44,666 bases of DNA from Candidatus Anoxychlamydiales bacterium (GTDB lineage: Bacteria; Chlamydiota; Chlamydiia; Chlamydiales; SM23-39): NCBI GenBank assembly GCA_011064875.1, contig JAAKFV010000003.1, positions 1 through 44,666 of the forward strand, in the 5' to 3' direction. The notes under the pieces were generated by a model that was not told where the DNA came from, did no database searches, and was given only the letters and a program-made list of their open reading frames with translations. Of the stretch, positions 1 through 44,657 are shown piece by piece (within the stretch, counting starts at the first letter, position 1; every line of letters begins with the position of its first letter). The translations under genes were made by a program, and so were the position numbers.

Positions 1-60
1 TCTTTTATGCTCTTTGTTAGTTATATCCATTGTGTAACGTTTTGTGTTAACAGACATCAT
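1..60 (-). CDS. 5' end of a gene running off the window; possibly a ribbon-helix-helix (CopG/ParG-like) antitoxin or regulator
   Basis: Minus strand AGGAG RBS, then ATG at 60 giving MMSVNTKRYTMDITNKEHKR...; the alternating 'KRYTMDI' strand followed by a helix resembles RHH N-termini. Confidence 0.45.
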   Translation of the reverse strand, partial: MMSVNTKRYTMDITNKEHKR

Positions 61-132
61 CTATTCTCCTTTATTTCTAATGATATCCAAAATACTACGG
101 CACTGCAAGCAGTAAAGCAAATTTCTTTATCT

Positions 133-358
133 CATCCAATTGATTTATTAATTGAAACTCTTTATTCATCACATTAGATTTCACAATTTTTACACATTGC
201 ATAAAAATAAACAGCAATATATTACAAAAAGCTACAAAAGAAAAAATTTGCTTAACATATTAAAAGTTATTTTGTTATAGTTTGTAGCTTGTTGTGGATT
301 ATTGTATTAAAACCGAATCATAATCAGGGTGTTGTTGGTTCGAGTCCGACTACCGCTA
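133..358 (+). repeat. ~220-bp direct repeat, copy 1 (att-like element end terminating in a tRNA-Met 3' fragment)
   Basis: Aligns by eye with 4892-5107 (TATTAATTGAAACTCTTTATTCATCAC ... ATATTACAAAAAGCTACAAAAGAAAA ... CTTAACATATTAAAA ... TGTGGATTATTGT ... TCATAATC). Confidence 0.9.
313..358 (+). pseudogene. tRNA-Met(CAT) 3'-half remnant, copy 1 (att-like)
   Basis: TCATAAT anticodon loop, GTTGGTTCGAGTCCGAC T-arm, TACCGCTA acceptor 3' strand; no 5' acceptor strand or D-arm upstream. Confidence 0.8.
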
Positions 359-479
359 TTTTTGTTAACCTTTGATTTTCAGCTAATTAAGAATAAAATT
401 AATATCGATAAAAGTTCTTCTTCAAGGCACACTTAAATTATTAATTTAAAAAACTTGTAAATTTATTGTAAAAATAGTT

Positions 480-527
480 TTCTAACAAAGGTACTCGCTT
501 GACATTATTGTGTACCTTTATTAGAAT
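480..527 (+). promoter_or_regulatory. sigma70/66 promoter of abiE with a 15-bp inverted-repeat operator
   Basis: TTGACA(499-504)-17nt-TAGAAT(522-527); IR TTCTAACAAAGGTAC (480-494) / GTACCTTTATTAGAA (512-526), 1 mismatch. Confidence 0.8.
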
Positions 528-534
528 AAGTTTT

Positions 535-1131
535 ATGAGAAAGCATAAATATTTACACAAACTTCAACTCTTTTTAAATCGTCCTTTTTTTACGGCTAAA
601 GAAGCTAAAAAAGGTGGCATCCCTTCATATGAATTAAGTTATTTTTGTAAAATTGGCATAATAGAAAGAATTGCTAGAGGAATTTACAAATCTGTTAAAT
701 ATGATCTAAAAGTTGATTTTCATCTAGAAGAATTAGTGTTGATTGCTTCAAGTATTTCGAAAGGAGTAATATGTCTTATTTCTGCATTATGTCTTTATGA
801 TTTAACTGATCAAATGATGCATGAATATTGGATTGCAGTTCCTAATTCTTCTAAACCTCCTAAACGTCCTCATACTCGAATTATTCGAATGAGAAATATG
901 ACTCTTGGGAAAGAAAAAATAAAGTTAGGAAAATATTCATTAAATATTTTTAATCGAGAAAGAACTATTATTGATTCATTTCGTTTTTTAAATAAAGAAA
1001 TAGCAATAAAAGCTTTGCAAGCTTATTTATCTCCAAAAGGTGAAAATAAACCTGATTTAATAAAACTACAAAAATATGCTAAATTGCTTAGAGTTAATAT
1101 TAATGATTATATACTTAGCTTAACAACATGA
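535..1131 (+). CDS. abiEi: Type IV TA antitoxin, AbiEi family (N-terminal wHTH)
   Basis: 'IERIARGIY', 'GVICLISAL..YDLT', 'ERTIID' AbiEi motifs; overlaps the downstream toxin (ATGA). The ORF-track TTG start at 499 coincides with the -35 box, so ATG 535 is preferred. Confidence 0.88.
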   Translation: MRKHKYLHKLQLFLNRPFFTAKEAKKGGIPSYELSYFCKIGIIERIARGIYKSVKYDLKVDFHLEELVLIASSISKGVICLISALCLYDLTDQMMHEYWIAVPNSSKPPKRPHTRIIRMRNMTLGKEKIKLGKYSLNIFNRERTIIDSFRFLNKEIAIKALQAYLSPKGENKPDLIKLQKYAKLLRVNINDYILSLTT

Positions 1132-1997
1132 ATGAAAATCTAGAAAAATCTATAAAAGCGAAGCTTAGGCAAATAGCTAAAATTGAAAATAAAAATCCTT
1201 CAATACTTTTGCAGAATTTCTTTTTAGAAAGATTTTTGGTTCGTCTCTCTTATTCATCTTATTGTGATAATTTTGTTCTAAAAGGAGGTCTTTTATTATC
1301 AAAATATATTGATATTGGCAGACAAACACAAGACTTAGATTTTTTTGCTAAAAATTTAAAAAACAAGACAAAAGTCATTGAAAATATTTTTCAAGAAATA
1401 GCTTATATAAAAACAGAAGATGGCATAATTTTTAAAGATATTCGAGCCAGTGAGCTTTTTCATCCTCATATGAATTATCTGGGAGCTCAAGTTTCAATGT
1501 TTGGATATTTTGGTAAAATACGAGCTAAACTTAGCATTGATCTTGGTTTTGGGGATGTTGTTAAAGAAATCAAAAAAGAGATTGTTTTAATGAAAAGCTC
1601 CAAAGGGCCTCTTTTTGAAAATTCAATTACACTAAATTGTTATCCTCGTGAGTTCATTTTTGCTGAAAAATTAGAAACAATTATTTTTAGGGGAGCTGCG
1701 AATAGTAGAATGAAGGATTTTTATGATGTTTATCTCATGATGTTAGAAGACAAAGGTATAGAGAAAAAAGTTCTTGAAAGTGCTATTTTAGAAGTTTTCA
1801 ATCATAGAAAAACTCCATTAAATATTCCTATTTCTTTTTCAGATGCTGATTTTTTTCATTTAGAAATTTATTGGAAGGCTTTTTTTCAAGGATTAAATCT
1901 AAAAGCGATAAGTTATGCTATCCCTAAACAAATTACTGAAATAGTTTTCGAAATAAATAAATGGTTAAAAATAAATACAGATTTATCTAACAAATAA
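1128..1997 (+). CDS. abiEii: Type IV TA toxin, AbiEii/AbiGii nucleotidyltransferase
   Basis: 'FVLKGG', 'RQTQDLDF', 'AEKLE', 'NSRMKDFYD' motifs; coupled to abiEi. Confidence 0.9.
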   Translation: MNENLEKSIKAKLRQIAKIENKNPSILLQNFFLERFLVRLSYSSYCDNFVLKGGLLLSKYIDIGRQTQDLDFFAKNLKNKTKVIENIFQEIAYIKTEDGIIFKDIRASELFHPHMNYLGAQVSMFGYFGKIRAKLSIDLGFGDVVKEIKKEIVLMKSSKGPLFENSITLNCYPREFIFAEKLETIIFRGAANSRMKDFYDVYLMMLEDKGIEKKVLESAILEVFNHRKTPLNIPISFSDADFFHLEIYWKAFFQGLNLKAISYAIPKQITEIVFEINKWLKINTDLSNK

Positions 1998-2013
1998 TGA
2001 TTATAAAAAAACA

Positions 2014-2075
2014 TATATTTCATGACATAGTGGTGACACACTAAGAGTCTATATTCATCATTATATTTCATGACA
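2014..2075 (+). repeat. 14-bp direct repeat TATATTTCATGACA x2 (plus a third TGACA); possible recombinase arm sites
   Basis: Identical copies at 2014-2027 and 2062-2075, about 80 bp upstream of tRNA fragment 2. Confidence 0.55.
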
Positions 2076-2153
2076 AATCATTTGCCCAAATAACAAAGTC
2101 ATTCTATTATAGTGCTGTAAATTACTGATGAGTAATGAGGTATTAGGGATTAA

Positions 2154-2201
2154 CTCGGAGTCATAATCCGGGTGTCGTTGGTTCGAGTCCGACTGCCGCT
2201 A
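2154..2201 (+). pseudogene. tRNA-Met(CAT) 3'-half remnant, copy 2 (best preserved, att-like)
   Basis: CTCGGAGTCATAATCCGGGTGTCGTTGGTTCGAGTCCGACTGCCGCTA; upstream sequence cannot pair with TGCCGCT and has no D-arm. Confidence 0.85.
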
Positions 2202-2290
2202 TTTTGATTCTTAAGAACTAAGAAATCGCAAGTGATAATTTCATGTGGGGTTCAAATTCGAATTAGAAGCGCTCTAAAAATACTTCTTTC

Positions 2291-2439
2291 TTATACAATC
2301 TCATATAATCTTATATAGTTAAAATATAACATTCTTAAACTCCTGTTTATAAAGTGTTTAGTTTTTGCGTTAGCAAGATAGAACATGCGAAAATTGACGT
2401 TTATTATACAATCTTATATAATCTTATATAGTTAAAATA
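2291..2439 (+). promoter_or_regulatory. fic promoter with a duplicated 36-bp operator-like block
   Basis: TTGACG(2394-2399)-17nt-TATAAT(2417-2422); block TTATACAATCTYATATAATCTTATATAGTTAAAATA at 2291-2326 and 2404-2439 (35/36 identical). Confidence 0.75.
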
Positions 2440-2449
2440 AAAGGTTCTT

Positions 2450-3508
2450 ATGGTTAAAAATCGTTTTGAACAAAGATTAAATTCTCTATCTTCTGAGCTC
2501 TGGACAAAAATAGCACAAATTGACGAATTAAAAGGACGATGGATTGCTGGTATTCAGCTAAGCTCTCAAGTTCTGGGCCGTCTAAAGCGTTCTATTCTGA
2601 TCACTTCTACTGGTGCATCGACTCGCATTGAAGGAGCTCGACTATCTGATGAAGACGTAGAAAAACTTATGCGTGGCTTAGACATTCAAAAATTTACTGA
2701 TCGTGACAAACAGGAAGTGAAAGGCTACTTTGAGCTGTTGGAAAATGTTTTTAATTCATGGAAATCTATTAAATTATCAGAAAGTACAATTAAACATTTT
2801 CATAAAGAACTTTTAAACTATGTAAAAAAAGATAAAATTCATCGAGGGGAATATAAAAAAAATGAGAATAAAGTACATATGATCGACAAAGCTGGCAAAT
2901 CTATTGGAGTTCTCTTTGATACAACCAAAGCTTTTTTAACCCCAAAAGAGATGCAAGAATTAGTAGAATGGACTAGAGATGCTTTTCTTGAAAAAAAAAA
3001 TCATCCTCTTTTGATCATAGCAAATTTCATTGTTGAGTTCCTGCAAATTCACCCCTTTCAAGACGGCAATGGACGACTTAGCCGTATTCTGACAAACTTG
3101 CTTTTGCTCAAAACAGGTTATTTGTATATGCCTTATGTTTCACATGAAAAGCTAATAGAAGATAACAAACCTGATTATTACATGGCGCTTAGGAAAAGCC
3201 AAAAAACTTTCAAAACCTCTCATGAAACCATTACATCTTGGCTGGATTTCTTTTTAGAAATTTTGCTTCAACAATCAAAAATAGCCATAGAACTTCTTTC
3301 ACAAGAAAACATTGAAAAAATTTTATCTGTTAAACAATTAGCTATATGGCAATATCTCCAAACCGTTGATGAAGCTACACCAAAAGAAATAATGCAAAAA
3401 ACCAAAATATCCCGACCTACTGTTAATCAGGTACTTGATAAATTAATTCGCCTAAAAAAAATCGAACGTCTTGGCCTCGGTAGAAGCACAAGATATCGTA
3501 AATTATAA
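2450..3508 (+). CDS. Fic family protein (class II, autoinhibited) with C-terminal winged HTH
   Basis: Canonical HPFQDGNGRLSR motif; N-terminal inhibitory STRIEG (S/TxxxEG/N); C-terminal 'SRPTVNQVLDKL...G.GRSTRY' wHTH. Confidence 0.93.
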   Translation: MVKNRFEQRLNSLSSELWTKIAQIDELKGRWIAGIQLSSQVLGRLKRSILITSTGASTRIEGARLSDEDVEKLMRGLDIQKFTDRDKQEVKGYFELLENVFNSWKSIKLSESTIKHFHKELLNYVKKDKIHRGEYKKNENKVHMIDKAGKSIGVLFDTTKAFLTPKEMQELVEWTRDAFLEKKNHPLLIIANFIVEFLQIHPFQDGNGRLSRILTNLLLLKTGYLYMPYVSHEKLIEDNKPDYYMALRKSQKTFKTSHETITSWLDFFLEILLQQSKIAIELLSQENIEKILSVKQLAIWQYLQTVDEATPKEIMQKTKISRPTVNQVLDKLIRLKKIERLGLGRSTRYRKL

Positions 3509-3513
3509 AAAAA

Positions 3514-4815
3514 GTGACAAATGCTATTTTGAAAAAATTAATCTCAGTTATATTAATTTTATCAATTGGTTCTTATATTTCATGGTTTTTGATAAATAAA
3601 CATAACAAATATTTATTTAAAGAAACTTTTGTTAAAGAATTAAACAAAAAAGTTTTTAAATCTAAAATTAAAGATAAACCTCCAACGTGGATGATTGAAC
3701 AAATTCAAGAAGAATTTGAACCTTTTGTTTCAAATGGCATCACATCTAAAAGAGTAGATGAGACATTTAAAAAAATAAGAAAGACTTTTCTCTGCAATGA
3801 AATAATTCGTTATCGTATTATAAATAATGAACTTTTTCGTTATTTTAATAATGCTGAAACTGTATCTCTAAAAGATAGTTCTCTTGAGAAAGCTATAAAA
3901 ACCATATTGTATTTTGAACCTATAAAAGATATCGATATTATTATTTCTCACCAAGATGGTATTCCCATTGGAGAACAATCTGAGGGATTTTATATTACAG
4001 AAAAAGAAGAGATGCAAGCACCGATTTTATGTTCTGCAAAAAAGAAAGATTTACCCTTAGTAATTTTAATCCCAGATTGGCGCTCCATTTCCAGATGGTG
4101 GTGTAAAGAAATAAAATGCGTTTTAAAGGCTATTGATAAAAATAGCTGGGAAAGTAAAAAAAATTATGCTTTTTGGAGAGGGAGTTTAACCAATGGTATT
4201 CGCTCGAAATTATGCAAGATGGCGCTGCAATATCCAAATCATTTATATGCGAAATTAAATGCAAAAGTTGAAAATAAGGATTTGCAAACACAACTAGAAC
4301 AAGAGGGGATTTATTGTGCTAAAGGGTGGTATCCTATGGAAAAGATACTAGAAAATAAATATTTACCCCTAATGGATGGAGTTATGTCAGCAGCTCCAGC
4401 CTTTCAGTCTCGTTTATTATCTAATTCTTTAACTCTAAAGCAGGATTTTCCTGGGGTTCAATGGTTTTTTAAGCCATTGAAACCTTACGTTCATTATGTT
4501 CCTTTAAAACATGATATTAGTGATTTGATAGAAAAGATTGAATGGGCAAAAAAAAATGATAATTTATGCAAAGAGATCTCTAAAAACGCTACTGATTTTG
4601 CTTTGAACAATTTAACGTTTGAAGATGTTTATCTTTATTTATATCTCGTTTTAAAAAAATATTCTTCTCTATCTTTAATAAATAGTGAAGAAATAAAAAA
4701 AGATATAAAAAATGATTCTAACTGGATTAATATTCAAAAAAGAGAAAAATTGAAAAAGAAATTATTAAAAAGCAGCTTTAGAAAAGTCTGTAATTTTGCT
4801 ACCCCTGATTTTTAA
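3514..4815 (+). CDS. Glycosyltransferase family 90 (CAP10/POGLUT-like) with N-terminal membrane anchor
   Basis: 'WESKKNYAFWRGS', 'KY...DG', 'RLLSNS', 'WFFKPLKPYVHYVPLK.D.SDL.EKIEWAK.ND' typical of the GT90 C-terminus. Confidence 0.82.
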   Translation: MTNAILKKLISVILILSIGSYISWFLINKHNKYLFKETFVKELNKKVFKSKIKDKPPTWMIEQIQEEFEPFVSNGITSKRVDETFKKIRKTFLCNEIIRYRIINNELFRYFNNAETVSLKDSSLEKAIKTILYFEPIKDIDIIISHQDGIPIGEQSEGFYITEKEEMQAPILCSAKKKDLPLVILIPDWRSISRWWCKEIKCVLKAIDKNSWESKKNYAFWRGSLTNGIRSKLCKMALQYPNHLYAKLNAKVENKDLQTQLEQEGIYCAKGWYPMEKILENKYLPLMDGVMSAAPAFQSRLLSNSLTLKQDFPGVQWFFKPLKPYVHYVPLKHDISDLIEKIEWAKKNDNLCKEISKNATDFALNNLTFEDVYLYLYLVLKKYSSLSLINSEEIKKDIKNDSNWINIQKREKLKKKLLKSSFRKVCNFATPDF

Positions 4816-4891
4816 AAATAATATATATATTTTTTTCTTTAACGACTTGTTAAGTTTCTAGAAAATCCATTTAACAAATTTTATATTTTTC

Positions 4892-5107
4892 CATTCTATT
4901 GATCTATTAATTGAAACTCTTTATTCATCACGATAAATTTTTACACAATTGGCTAAGAATAACAAGCAACATATTACAAAAAGCTACAAAAGAAAAGTTT
5001 TACTTAACATATTAAAATTTATTTTGTTGTATTCTTAGATTTATGTGGATTATTGTTTTAAAATGGGATCATAATCCAGGTCGTTGGTTTGAGTTAGACT
5101 GCCGTTA
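4892..5107 (+). repeat. ~220-bp direct repeat, copy 2, ending in decayed tRNA-Met 3' fragment 3 (5065-5107)
   Basis: Aligns with 133-358; ends GGGATCATAATCCAGGTCGTTGGTTTGAGTTAGACTGCCGTTA. Confidence 0.88.
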
Positions 5108-5142
5108 TAAATTTCTTAAAAAGCTTTGTCTTAGAATTGTTT

Positions 5143-5182
5143 AAAAAAAAAATGAGCAATATTTTTTATATATTGCTCATTT
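5143..5182 (-). terminator. Rho-independent terminator of the 5209-5949 gene
   Basis: AATGAGCAATA / TATTGCTCATT hairpin with an A-run on the left (U-tract on the minus strand). Confidence 0.75.
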
Positions 5183-5208
5183 AATTGATTAAATCTTAAT
5201 TAGATTAT

Positions 5209-5949
5209 TTACTCATCATCTGCAGGATCCGTAATATCAGCCATTCTCGCTCTTGATCCTGATCTAGGCGATGCTGGTTCTGCTGGTGCCGCCGGAGCAG
5301 CTGGTGCTGCGGCTAAATCAGCCGGTATAAATGAAGCTGTTTCTACTGGTACTGATTCTACTCGTGGTGCTGGTGCATATGCAGATGGATCTGCTGCTGC
5401 ATTATTTTCATCACTAATGTACTTTCTCCAAAGCCTACTACCTAAACTTTTTATCCAACTAGCTGGTTTTGATCCAAGTCCAATTAAGGCAGGTCCAGAA
5501 ATTGATCCAAGGAATATTGCTGCTGTTGATGAAATTTTAACAGACGTTAGGGTTGATATTAATACTGAACCAAATCCAAATGTACCTCCTCCTATTAATG
5601 CAGCTAAAAGAGCTTTATCCCATTTTGTTACGTTACCGGTTTTATACCAATCTTTGGCTCTTTTTAATAATAAATATGAACCCATTGTTGAGCCTAAACT
5701 ACTAGTAACTCCTAAAGTAAGATTTAAAGCTCCTCCTACAGAAACGAAATGAAAAAGTGAAGTTACACCTCCTGCAACTCCAAAAGCTGTTAATCCTACA
5801 GTTAAGGCGATGAGTACAATGGCTTTTATTCTATCCTTCTCTGTTTTAGTAAATGGCTGGTCACCAGCTTTTGAAAAATGATCAGAATGTAACGGTGCTG
5901 GCTTTGCAGTAGGACTACCGTATGCTGGAACTGGACTAGTTGCTGACAT
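5209..5949 (-). CDS. Inc-like membrane protein / putative T3SS substrate
   Basis: Two bilobed hydrophobic segments, S/T/P-rich N-terminus (MSATSPVP), Ala/Pro-rich C-tail, AGGAG RBS. Confidence 0.6.
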   Translation of the reverse strand: MSATSPVPAYGSPTAKPAPLHSDHFSKAGDQPFTKTEKDRIKAIVLIALTVGLTAFGVAGGVTSLFHFVSVGGALNLTLGVTSSLGSTMGSYLLLKRAKDWYKTGNVTKWDKALLAALIGGGTFGFGSVLISTLTSVKISSTAAIFLGSISGPALIGLGSKPASWIKSLGSRLWRKYISDENNAAADPSAYAPAPRVESVPVETASFIPADLAAAPAAPAAPAEPASPRSGSRARMADITDPADDE

Positions 5950-6360
5950 AATAAATTCTCCTTTTTTTTTAATTATTAAATTATTAGTTTCTTATTAATT
6001 TAACTTTATTTATATGTTTTAAATTATCAACTATTATTATATTCAATTATTAAATTTTAGTAAAGAAATATTAAGTTTATAAATAAAAAAAATATAAATT
6101 ATTACATATAAAAAACAACCTTTACAAGAATCTATAATGATTAAATTATTTAATTTTTATACTTAAAAATTTAATTTAACATAGTTAAAATAAAAATATT
6201 AATATAATAACTAGAATATTTTTTTGAAATATTAAGCGAAAGTTAAAAAAAGGGGAGAAAGGTGGGTGAATATCATTCAAATTTTTACTTGATTAAAAGG
6301 CTATAGATTGAAATTAGTCATTAATAACCTATCTACTCAATTCAAAAACCACAAAAACCT

Positions 6361-6753
6361 CTAAACAGCAAATCTTGGTATAGAATCGACAAGCTCATCT
6401 ATAGCGCTAATTATCCTATCTCTTACTGATATAGCACGCGCTCTCGCAAAGTCTTTACAACCATTGATAACCCCTTGAAAAAAGAGGGTAAAATGGTTAT
6501 ATGCAATTCTATCGATCAAGCCTATTGATAAACCAAACATATTATAGGCAATAAAGGGAAAAATTAGCGCTACAAACCAAGATAGTGCTTTTATAGCCAC
6601 AGAATAGACAATAGCTCTAATAGGGTCATTTAAGACCTTATGTAATGGATCTAGCCAATAACCCTTAAGATCATCTTGTATCATTTGTGATATTCTCACA
6701 TCTTCAGCGTCTACTCTAGGCCCCAGTACAGGGGCGGGAGCTGCAGCTGCCAT
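6361..6753 (-). CDS. Hypothetical membrane protein, Inc-like
   Basis: GGAGG RBS, MAAAAPAP N-terminus, central hydrophobic stretch. Confidence 0.55.
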   Translation of the reverse strand: MAAAAPAPVLGPRVDAEDVRISQMIQDDLKGYWLDPLHKVLNDPIRAIVYSVAIKALSWFVALIFPFIAYNMFGLSIGLIDRIAYNHFTLFFQGVINGCKDFARARAISVRDRIISAIDELVDSIPRFAV

Positions 6754-44575: not shown

Positions 44576-44657
44576 GCCCAGGTGGTGAAATTGGTAGACA
44601 CGCCAGACTTAGGATCTGGTGCCGCGAGGTATGTAGGTTCGAGTCCTATCCTGGGCA
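44576..44657 (+). tRNA. tRNA-Leu(TAG)
   Basis: GCCCAGG/CCTGGGC acceptor, CCAGA-CT-TAG-GA-TCTGG anticodon arm, long variable arm, GGTTCGAGTCC. Confidence 0.95.

Follow-up and report, generated by a model that had tools for sequence, protein, structure and literature searches.

We examined the left end of a 44,666-bp stretch of DNA (hereafter the window), which is the entire contig C31 of a Candidatus Anoxychlamydiales genome (G000; 1.58 Mb in 107 contigs, 29% GC). Here, small groups of genes are separated by displaced 3′ parts of a tRNA-Met gene. The region 1–5108 holds two complete modules and the end of a third, and it probably arose by repeated integration of islands at one tRNA gene, followed by decay. 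Positions given without a contig name refer to C31. The source genome was compared with the genomes G001, G002, G003, G004, G015, G032, G037, G047, G052 and G061, and DNA comparisons were made against a set of 103 family genomes.

The first complete module, located between displaced parts 1 and 2, encodes an AbiE pair on the forward strand. The antitoxin or regulator gene abiEi (535–1131) matched PF13338 (1.3e-8) and, over its full length, the PADLOC AbiEi model (3.9e-81), and the nucleotidyltransferase toxin gene abiEii (1128–1997) matched PF08843 (1.1e-34) and PADLOC AbiEii (4e-72). The two genes are adjacent with a 4-nt overlap (1128–1131), and judged by their sequences they would form an AbiE system of the type IV toxin-antitoxin (TA) and abortive-infection kind. 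A metagenome scan for AbiEii returned 199 relatives, the best of which was only 40% identical. In the DNA search, abiE matches occurred in 38 of the 103 family genomes, and outside G000 the coding part did not exceed 71% identity.

The second complete module, between parts 2 and 3, also lies on the forward strand and carries a fic gene (2450–3508) and a gene for a family-90 glycosyltransferase (GT90; 3514–4815; PF05686, 1.5e-34) with an N-terminal hydrophobic segment. The Fic protein matched PF02661 (4.9e-18) and winged helix-turn-helix families at its C-terminus, and was SoFic-like by PADLOC (6.9e-43, residues 23–348), with only 53 bits against the NCBIfam SoFic equivalog (cut-off 550). The translation contains what we take to be the Fic motif, and Millman is said to have named SoFic as a defence gene in 2022. 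The GT90 family is better known from eukaryotes; the protein encoded here had no match in PADLOC or NCBIfam. A GT90 paralogue, 28% identical, was also present elsewhere in the same genome (C75:7230–8210). The leader of fic (2287–2450, forward strand) contains two 51-bp direct repeats (2287–2337 and 2400–2450; repeat family D6, 90% identity), which are likely to be two copies of an operator or promoter that serves the winged-helix Fic protein. These repeats are kept upstream of fic in G002, G003 and G052. G037 also has them, as does G015, close to its tRNA-Met.

The third module runs off the left edge. Positions 1–359 are 93% identical to G003:C16 2504–2862, the right end of a dinJ-yafQ module that encodes an 80-amino-acid ParD-like protein and an 88-amino-acid YafQ toxin (PF15738, 3.8e-31). 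Because of this identity, the gene at the edge, previously described as similar to ribbon-helix-helix genes, is read as the start of the ParD/DinJ-like antitoxin gene of such a pair (1–60, reverse strand; the 5′ end is present and the contig end cuts off the rest). The cargo therefore agrees with the TA and defence character first proposed, with AbiE, a SoFic-like Fic and, by homology, dinJ-yafQ. The content of the two complete modules (1.8 and 2.9 kb) was likewise as first described: each holds only two open reading frames (ORFs) with family matches, AbiEi/AbiEii and Fic/GT90, and neither the ORF list nor Pfam gave a recombinase between the three tRNA parts. A promoter for each module had also been claimed. 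Promoter-like sites, each agreeing at 11 of 12 consensus positions and to be read as a consensus match only, were found before abiEi (499–527, forward strand) and before fic (2394–2422, forward strand). These two were the best sites of the region, but the total number of sites (32) was not above that in shuffled sequence (28.6 ± 5.7).

The three tRNA-Met(CAT) 3′ parts that bound these modules are real, share the forward orientation and lie close to where they had first been placed, at 313–359, 2156–2202 and 5063–5108. Parts 1 and 2 form attachment-site (att) junctions and part 3 the outer boundary of the array. Part 1 is identical at 41 of 47 positions to nt 30–76 of the intact tRNA-Met on contig C29, part 2 is identical to the intact gene at 44 of 47, and part 3 at 36 of 48 columns with a 2-nt deletion, so the outermost copy is indeed the most decayed. 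None of the three has a 5′ half, and ARAGORN called no tRNA in 1–5400. An Rfam scan of 1–6000 gave nothing above the curated thresholds, the tRNA model reaching 17.4 bits (cut-off 29) at 2136–2201. All three parts are covered by repeat families (D3, D4 and D5, at 285–359, 2128–2202 and 5036–5108). The BLAST matches to the intact tRNA (E = 4e-15 for copy 2 and 4e-9 for copy 1), the location of copy 3 within a 228-column repeat (133–359 vs. 4892–5108, 80.7% identity, E 1e-52) and an empty control with the tRNA pattern read backwards (no matches in five genomes, compared with three forward matches in G000 including the intact gene) indicate that the copies are not due to chance.

The shared sequence does not begin at the anticodon loop, as had been suggested, but slightly earlier, at tRNA nt 30–34 in the 5′ strand of the anticodon stem. 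Integration by crossover in the anticodon loop is a known mechanism of tyrosine integrases, and the starts at nt 30–34 fit a crossover in the loop, between the two halves of the stem. Williams is said to have divided tRNA integration sites into sublocation classes in 2002. The proposal that the copies are relics of att sites, left by tyrosine integrases acting at the anticodon stem-loop, was supported. The intact tRNA-Met has the same T-stem variant in G000, G002 and G003, and displaced parts 1 and 2 carry the variant seen in the intact tRNA of G004, G001 and G052; both variants keep the stem paired. This mismatch between the intact and the displaced copies is as predicted if integration exchanges the 3′ half of the tRNA for that of the incoming element.

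Each tRNA part is preceded by a conserved arm on the element side, of which two kinds were found, all on the forward strand. The type-A arm, a non-coding P arm, occurs before part 1 (133–312) and again before part 3 (4892–5062), the two copies forming most of the 228-column repeat, and it is 93% identical in G003 and 74–85% identical in three other genera (G052, G061 and G032). The type-B arm precedes part 2 (2018–2153), and its matches in G002, G037 and G047 (81–89%) always adjoin a tRNA-Met part. Both kinds recur before tRNA parts across genera with cargo that differs by genome, and the type-B arms are better conserved across genera than the coding DNA of abiE. An 18-mer of the type-A arm (179–196) was also present in the spacer between tRNA-Asn and its integrase on contig C27. 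The number of 9-mers common to the type-A arms and this spacer was reached by 1 of 300 and 0 of 300 random genome windows, a likeness that is suggestive only. No such excess was found for type A with the integrase spacers of C29 or C53, and type B shares none. On the other side of the junction, copy 2 is followed by a trailer (2203–2233, forward strand) homologous to that of the intact tRNA-Met, so that 2156–2233 is 88% identical to C29 over 78 nt. Read by eye, this trailer of about 30 nt resembles a small hairpin. At their left ends, the units showed no conservation past the tRNA trailer. Chromosomal backbone common to the relatives resumes at ~5145.

A search for the intact cognate tRNA-Met and an integrase, set beforehand as a test, found both on contig C29. 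G000 has three tRNAs with a CAT anticodon, and the cognate of the displaced parts lies at C29:16990–17065 (94% identity to copy 2 over 48 nt). The gene order on this contig is leuS, waaA, tRNA-fMet, tRNA-Met, integrase and an ankyrin-repeat gene, after which the contig ends. The integrase is a 352-amino-acid ORF (C29:17372–18430) that starts 306 bp downstream of tRNA-Met, and it contains integrase N-terminal domains and an almost complete PF00589 domain (2.1e-34, profile positions 2–171 of 172). By NCBIfam cut-offs it is neither an integron integrase (TIGR02249, 55.1 bits with a cut-off of 265; NF011946, 27 bits with a cut-off of 435) nor a Xer protein. The description of the array as integrase-free therefore applies to the two modules but not to the locus, which has an integrase at its tRNA-proximal end. 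The three displaced parts are cognate to this one tRNA-Met, in agreement with the earlier suggestion that the modules are stacked at a single tRNA.

Gene order in two relatives places C29 and C31 on either side of a single locus. In G004, which belongs to the genus of G000, waaA, tRNA-fMet and tRNA-Met are followed by a fic remnant (88% identical to residues 183–352 of the window Fic) and then by homologues of 5209–5949, 7956–8879, 8952–9785 and 10445–11257. G015 keeps waaA and the tRNAs, followed by homologues of 7956–8879 and 10445–11257. The array would accordingly span from the tRNA on C29 through an unassembled gap to copy 3 at 5108, a linkage that in G000 rests on the gene order of these relatives.

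The same integrase family was found at other tRNA genes of G000. The genome encodes three full-length paralogues, each directly 3′ of a tRNA: that at tRNA-Met, one at tRNA-Asn (73% identity) and one at a second CAT tRNA (42%). Displaced 3′ parts were found for all three tRNAs (three for tRNA-Met, five for tRNA-Asn and one for the second CAT tRNA), all of them starting at nt 28–34, and those of the latter two tRNAs at nt 28–30. The tRNA-Asn gene lies at C27:4955–5028 with its integrase at C27:3594–4649, and its displaced parts (nt 30–74) lie at C91:2827–2871, C91:1064–1108, C6:851–895, C8:3090–3134 and C30:16883–16916. The two parts on C91 are 1.76 kb apart, and the neighbours of the tRNA-Asn fragments include a methyltransferase with ArsR, an ankyrin/TPR protein, a DUF2059 protein and a B3_4 protein. 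This tRNA-Asn system is a second array system in G000, larger than that of tRNA-Met. The second non-initiator CAT tRNA (C53:10167–10240) has its integrase at C53:8945–9991 and a displaced part at C36:618–664; for both this tRNA and that on C29, the label as Met or Ile2 is putative.

Relatives of the integrase in other genomes were also inspected for neighbouring tRNAs and displaced copies. Among the best 12 of 25, a tRNA was located 291–401 bp upstream of the integrase in seven, and four of these seven had a displaced copy (start at nt 29–36) 4–11 kb downstream, with two copies in one case. These relatives include records labelled as Chlamydiae, Desulfuromonadales and Gammaproteobacteria. At the locus L025, in a metagenome-assembled genome labelled as Desulfuromonadales, an integrase of 48% identity adjoins a tRNA-Gln, and displaced parts at 18624–18670 and 20280–20319 are 1.6 kb apart, which shows that small tandem units occur outside this lineage too. 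Small units of 1.3–2.9 kb recur on C91 of G000, on C16 of G003, in G037 and in L025.

Module content differs among the relatives, with different sets in G002, G003, G047 and G052. The tRNA-proximal side also differs across the genus: G000 has the integrase and ankyrin gene there, G001 and G002 have other sequence, and in G003 the intact tRNA is followed by a 7.4-kb island without an integrase (ankyrin proteins, an amine oxidase and a NUDIX protein) with a tRNA fragment at its end. On another contig of G003 (C16), two fragments bound a 1.66-kb unit made up of a 183-amino-acid ORF, the YafQ toxin and the ParD/DinJ-like antitoxin; past this unit come 426 bp of unrelated DNA and fic-GT90, and abiE is lacking. 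Scars of deletion were seen in several genomes. In G002, a fusion of the abiEi promoter and opening codons with the fic leader comes after a type-B arm and a tRNA fragment and precedes fic-GT90, and a 25-amino-acid integrase remnant is also present. In G004, only the C-terminal half of fic is left. Arrays persist in genomes without an intact integrase of this family: none was found in G002, G004 or G052, where the other matches were recombinases about 28–30% identical.

In G052, which belongs to another genus, the order from the intact tRNA-Met onward is a small gene pair, an abiEi stub (promoter and opening codons) fused to the fic leader, fic, and other genes in place of GT90; a type-A arm is present without its tRNA part. 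The Fic protein of G052 (L056; G052:C17 3299–4354) is 92% identical to that of the window (2450–3508; 86% at the DNA level) and WaaA is only 46% identical, which points to recent intergeneric transfer with the same tRNA-Met locus as the target. The transferred piece disregards the unit boundaries, since the abiEi stub, fic and differing downstream genes are found together. The array of G047 is contained in one 303-kb contig, where the intact tRNA-Met and four fragment sites, one of only 17 nt, are spread over 16 kb. Its units encode HIT and AbiEii; a methyltransferase, a HAD-like protein and GNAT; YcaO and a radical SAM protein; and an ABC transporter and an M1 peptidase. No integrase match was found in this array, and a Pfam search with 10 of its 21 ORFs of at least 70 amino acids showed no recombinase. 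An intact member of the integrase family is encoded elsewhere in the G047 genome.

Taken together, these data make it probable that integrative islands accumulated in tandem at a tRNA gene acting as a hotspot and then decayed to modules resembling cis-mobilizable elements (CIMEs). The region 1–5108 would be the distal end, far from the tRNA, of an integration hotspot at an elongator-type tRNA-Met(CAT). In the proposed mechanism, a tyrosine integrase of the family described above would recombine within the anticodon stem-loop, and the incoming element would supply its own tRNA 3′ part and trailer, rebuild the gene and displace the previous 3′ part outward. Repeated integrations would stack elements in tandem, the current integrase-bearing element being that which adjoins the intact tRNA on C29. 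Older elements have probably lost their integrase ends by deletion, with cargo, a type-A or type-B arm and a tRNA part remaining. The three units left in the window (part of dinJ-yafQ, abiEi-abiEii and fic-GT90) would represent such remainders, as they are att-flanked, free of recombinase genes and CIME-like. The most likely reason for the survival of TA and defence genes is that deletions removing addictive or protective loci would be selected against. Composite arrays would also have been passed between genera en bloc. The sequences directly show the anatomy of the array, the integrase adjoining the intact tRNA, a single locus divided between two contigs, variation and deletion scars among the relatives, and intergeneric transfer; the order of events, the loss of integrases from these modules and any mobility today are inferred.

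Several observations weigh against this scenario or leave parts of it less certain. At the junction of C29 and C31, no exact end overlap of 15–127 nt was found from the end of C29 or the start of C31 to any contig, and no G000 contig matched G003:C16 1205–2504, the missing left part of the dinJ-yafQ module. A completely empty tRNA-Met site was not found among the relatives examined, with G004 and G015 holding a remnant or other DNA there. The modules of G000 itself show no visible deletion scar, their ORFs being intact and each module having a promoter-like site, and the loss of integrases from these modules is a likely step and not an observed one. The type-A arm and part 3 are absent past fic/GT90 in G002 and G004. 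It may therefore be that fic-GT90 is backbone-like DNA of greater age and that part 3 arrived later, which would contradict a simple order with the oldest element outermost. TA-rich cargo is not seen at the tRNA-Asn fragments, so the argument from retention of TA genes is not general.

The preliminary description had proposed a different origin, namely non-autonomous cassettes of 2–3 kb mobilised in trans and accumulated in an integron-like array. On this model, each dedicated cassette would consist of cargo, an arm and an attC-like tRNA half, and a family integrase located elsewhere would excise it as a circle and insert it at the tRNA. We regard this as unlikely, although a number of observations speak for it. 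Every unit ends in a type-A or type-B arm and a tRNA part with varying cargo, in the manner of an ORF with attC, and the arms (81–89% across genera) are better conserved than the abiE coding DNA (at most 71%). The recurrence of small units, three intact integrases in G000, module ORFs that are intact in G000 with their own promoter-like sites, and the G047 array, which lacks an integrase in cis in a genome that has an intact family member, would all suit such cassettes. On the other hand, conservation at the left ends of the units does not go past the trailer, so that a complete attP with both arms is not evident, and no unit was found in two positions or at two tRNAs. The transfer to G052 ignored the unit boundaries, arrays persist in G002, G004 and G052 without an intact family integrase, and the integrase itself is not of the integron type (55 bits vs. 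a cut-off of 265). Deletion scars are common in the relatives; scars matching those expected of deletion remnants of larger islands, an outcome that the preliminary description had itself named as contrary to its proposal, were found in G002, G004 and G052. It is likewise doubtful that the arm and tRNA half constitute a portable attC-like end with which integrases elsewhere shuffle defence and TA units in and out of the tRNA-Met and tRNA-Asn arrays; such shuffling would amount to a tRNA-based cassette platform, similar to an integron, in intracellular bacteria with small genomes.

Acquisition of the array en bloc as one composite island, with the internal tRNA parts included and the internal repeats recording events in earlier hosts, would account for the abiE-to-fic order or its scar being common to G000, G002 and G052, and for the possible abiEii-like stub, read by eye, before the fic remnant of G004. 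It would also suit the 86% DNA identity of the fic region in G052 despite the difference in genus and the long divergence suggested by the only 81% identity between the type-A arms of G000. Transfer of a tandem of a CIME and an integrative and conjugative element (ICE) is documented (PMC5704250). This origin would be a variant of accretion with decay and not an alternative to it, and each genome of the genus has a different tRNA-proximal side, which indicates that at least some events were local; we consider it quite improbable for the array as a whole. Segmental duplication or gene conversion without site-specific recombination, or chance similarity, could in principle produce tRNA-like repeats, and parts 1 and 3, being within a 228-bp repeat, could have been copied as a block. 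However, all parts at three G000 tRNAs start at nt 28–34, the same start is seen with integrase relatives in other phyla, an integrase adjoins each intact tRNA and the reversed-pattern control was empty in five genomes, and such an origin is very improbable. Accretion of islands with subsequent decay is retained as the probable explanation of the array.

The comparison with integrons made in the preliminary description was not upheld. Integron cassettes end in attC sites, are mostly promoterless and are expressed from a common promoter. The array resembles an integron in being an ordered series of small cargo units that each end in a recombination site. Unlike in integrons, the platform here is a tRNA gene, the delimiting sites are an arm with a tRNA half, the integrase is not of the integron type and the modules have their own promoter-like sites.

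The locus fits better with known tRNA islands, having an intact tRNA with an integrase directly 3′ of it and, at the far end, repeats of the tRNA 3′ part that begin in the anticodon stem-loop. The modules also resemble CIMEs, with att-type flanks (parts 1 and 2, and parts 2 and 3) and no integration or transfer genes of their own. CIMEs keep attL and attR and have lost integration and transfer genes, and a three-step accretion model has been put forward, which the present units also fit (PMC5704250). The ICESt1 family of Streptococcus, with similar tandems at tRNA genes, resembles the present case in its att-flanked units without integration genes, in decay by deletion and in the possible transfer of whole tandems (PMC5704250). 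In contrast to the ICESt1-family CIMEs, the units here are very small (1.8 and 2.9 kb) and reside in a small genome, and no conjugation or mobilisation genes were in view.

A similar layout has been described in Prochlorococcus, where islands at seven tRNA genes are built by tycheposons; neighbouring elements have nothing but a partial island tRNA between them, and older remnants lie further in (10.1101/2020.12.28.424599). As here, newer elements displace older ones outward, and degenerate remnants, scattered partial tRNAs and modular cargo are seen (10.1101/2020.12.28.424599). The cargo differs, being TA, defence and effector-like genes here and nutrient-uptake genes in Prochlorococcus (10.1101/2020.12.28.424599). 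Tycheposons are defined by their own recombinase clade and replication modules (10.1101/2020.12.28.424599), and the likeness here is one of layout; Pfam gave no primase, helicase or polymerase gene in the window modules. Tandem islands of Dehalococcoides at the tmRNA gene ssrA are reported to be likewise a case of site-specific integration at a small-RNA gene, with a target gene and cargo different from those found here (PMC3146451). The concept of such arrays is already named, both as tandem accretion and CIMEs (PMC5704250) and as Prochlorococcus islands delimited by partial tRNAs (10.1101/2020.12.28.424599). A title-level literature search found no description of such arrays in Chlamydiae, which is not proof of absence.

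The system represents a busy hotspot in a small genome, with one integrase family, three tRNA genes and nine displaced tRNA halves. AbiE, a SoFic-like Fic and probably DinJ-YafQ have been retained in the tRNA-Met array. For the environmental relatives of chlamydiae, it shows the gain, stacking and erosion of defence and TA genes and of ankyrin-type effector candidates, with modules that cross genera. For mobile-element biology, it adds a further example of accretion with CIME-like decay and no new mechanism. The recurrent arms make the system convenient for testing the mobilisation of integrase-less units.

Past the array, a terminator hairpin (5145–5184, no strand assigned) with a 13-pair stem and a T run belongs to the backbone gene 5209–5949 (reverse strand) and is kept in G002 and G004. 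Rfam matches resembling psbA untranslated regions at 5144–5184 correspond to this hairpin and were set aside. The first two backbone genes (5209–5949 and 6361–6753, both reverse strand) encode Ala/Pro-rich proteins that match no Pfam family and contain long hydrophobic segments in pairs. These proteins are reminiscent of chlamydial inclusion-membrane proteins.

Assembled contigs of four public runs, of 16 listed, were aligned to the window, contigs being a form in which rare arrangements are dropped. They break at the repeats (196–219, 2066–2201 and 4967–4994). No joint of 2202 to 360 or of 5108 to 2203, the att boundaries, occurred in these contigs, from which nothing follows for excised circles. 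Two weak skip joints were seen at 90% likeness, 3502 to 5144 (side 30) and 4771 to 5147 (side 23). These resemble the G004-like and G002-like arrangements, respectively, and probably come from other strains.

The right end of C31 lies 9 bp past a tRNA-Leu(TAG) at 44576–44657, and several further G000 contigs begin or end at a tRNA (C16, Gly 115–185; C35, Gln 6–77; C43, Ser 12–98). Breaks of this kind could point to additional islands that vary between strains. L019 (G003:C16) at 2975–3043 and G000 C26:21282–21349 share a short repeat with a hairpin (88% identity), and a 43-nt sequence occurs in inverted copies on C14 of G000 (1026–1068 and 26195–26236). Both may be small mobile repeats.

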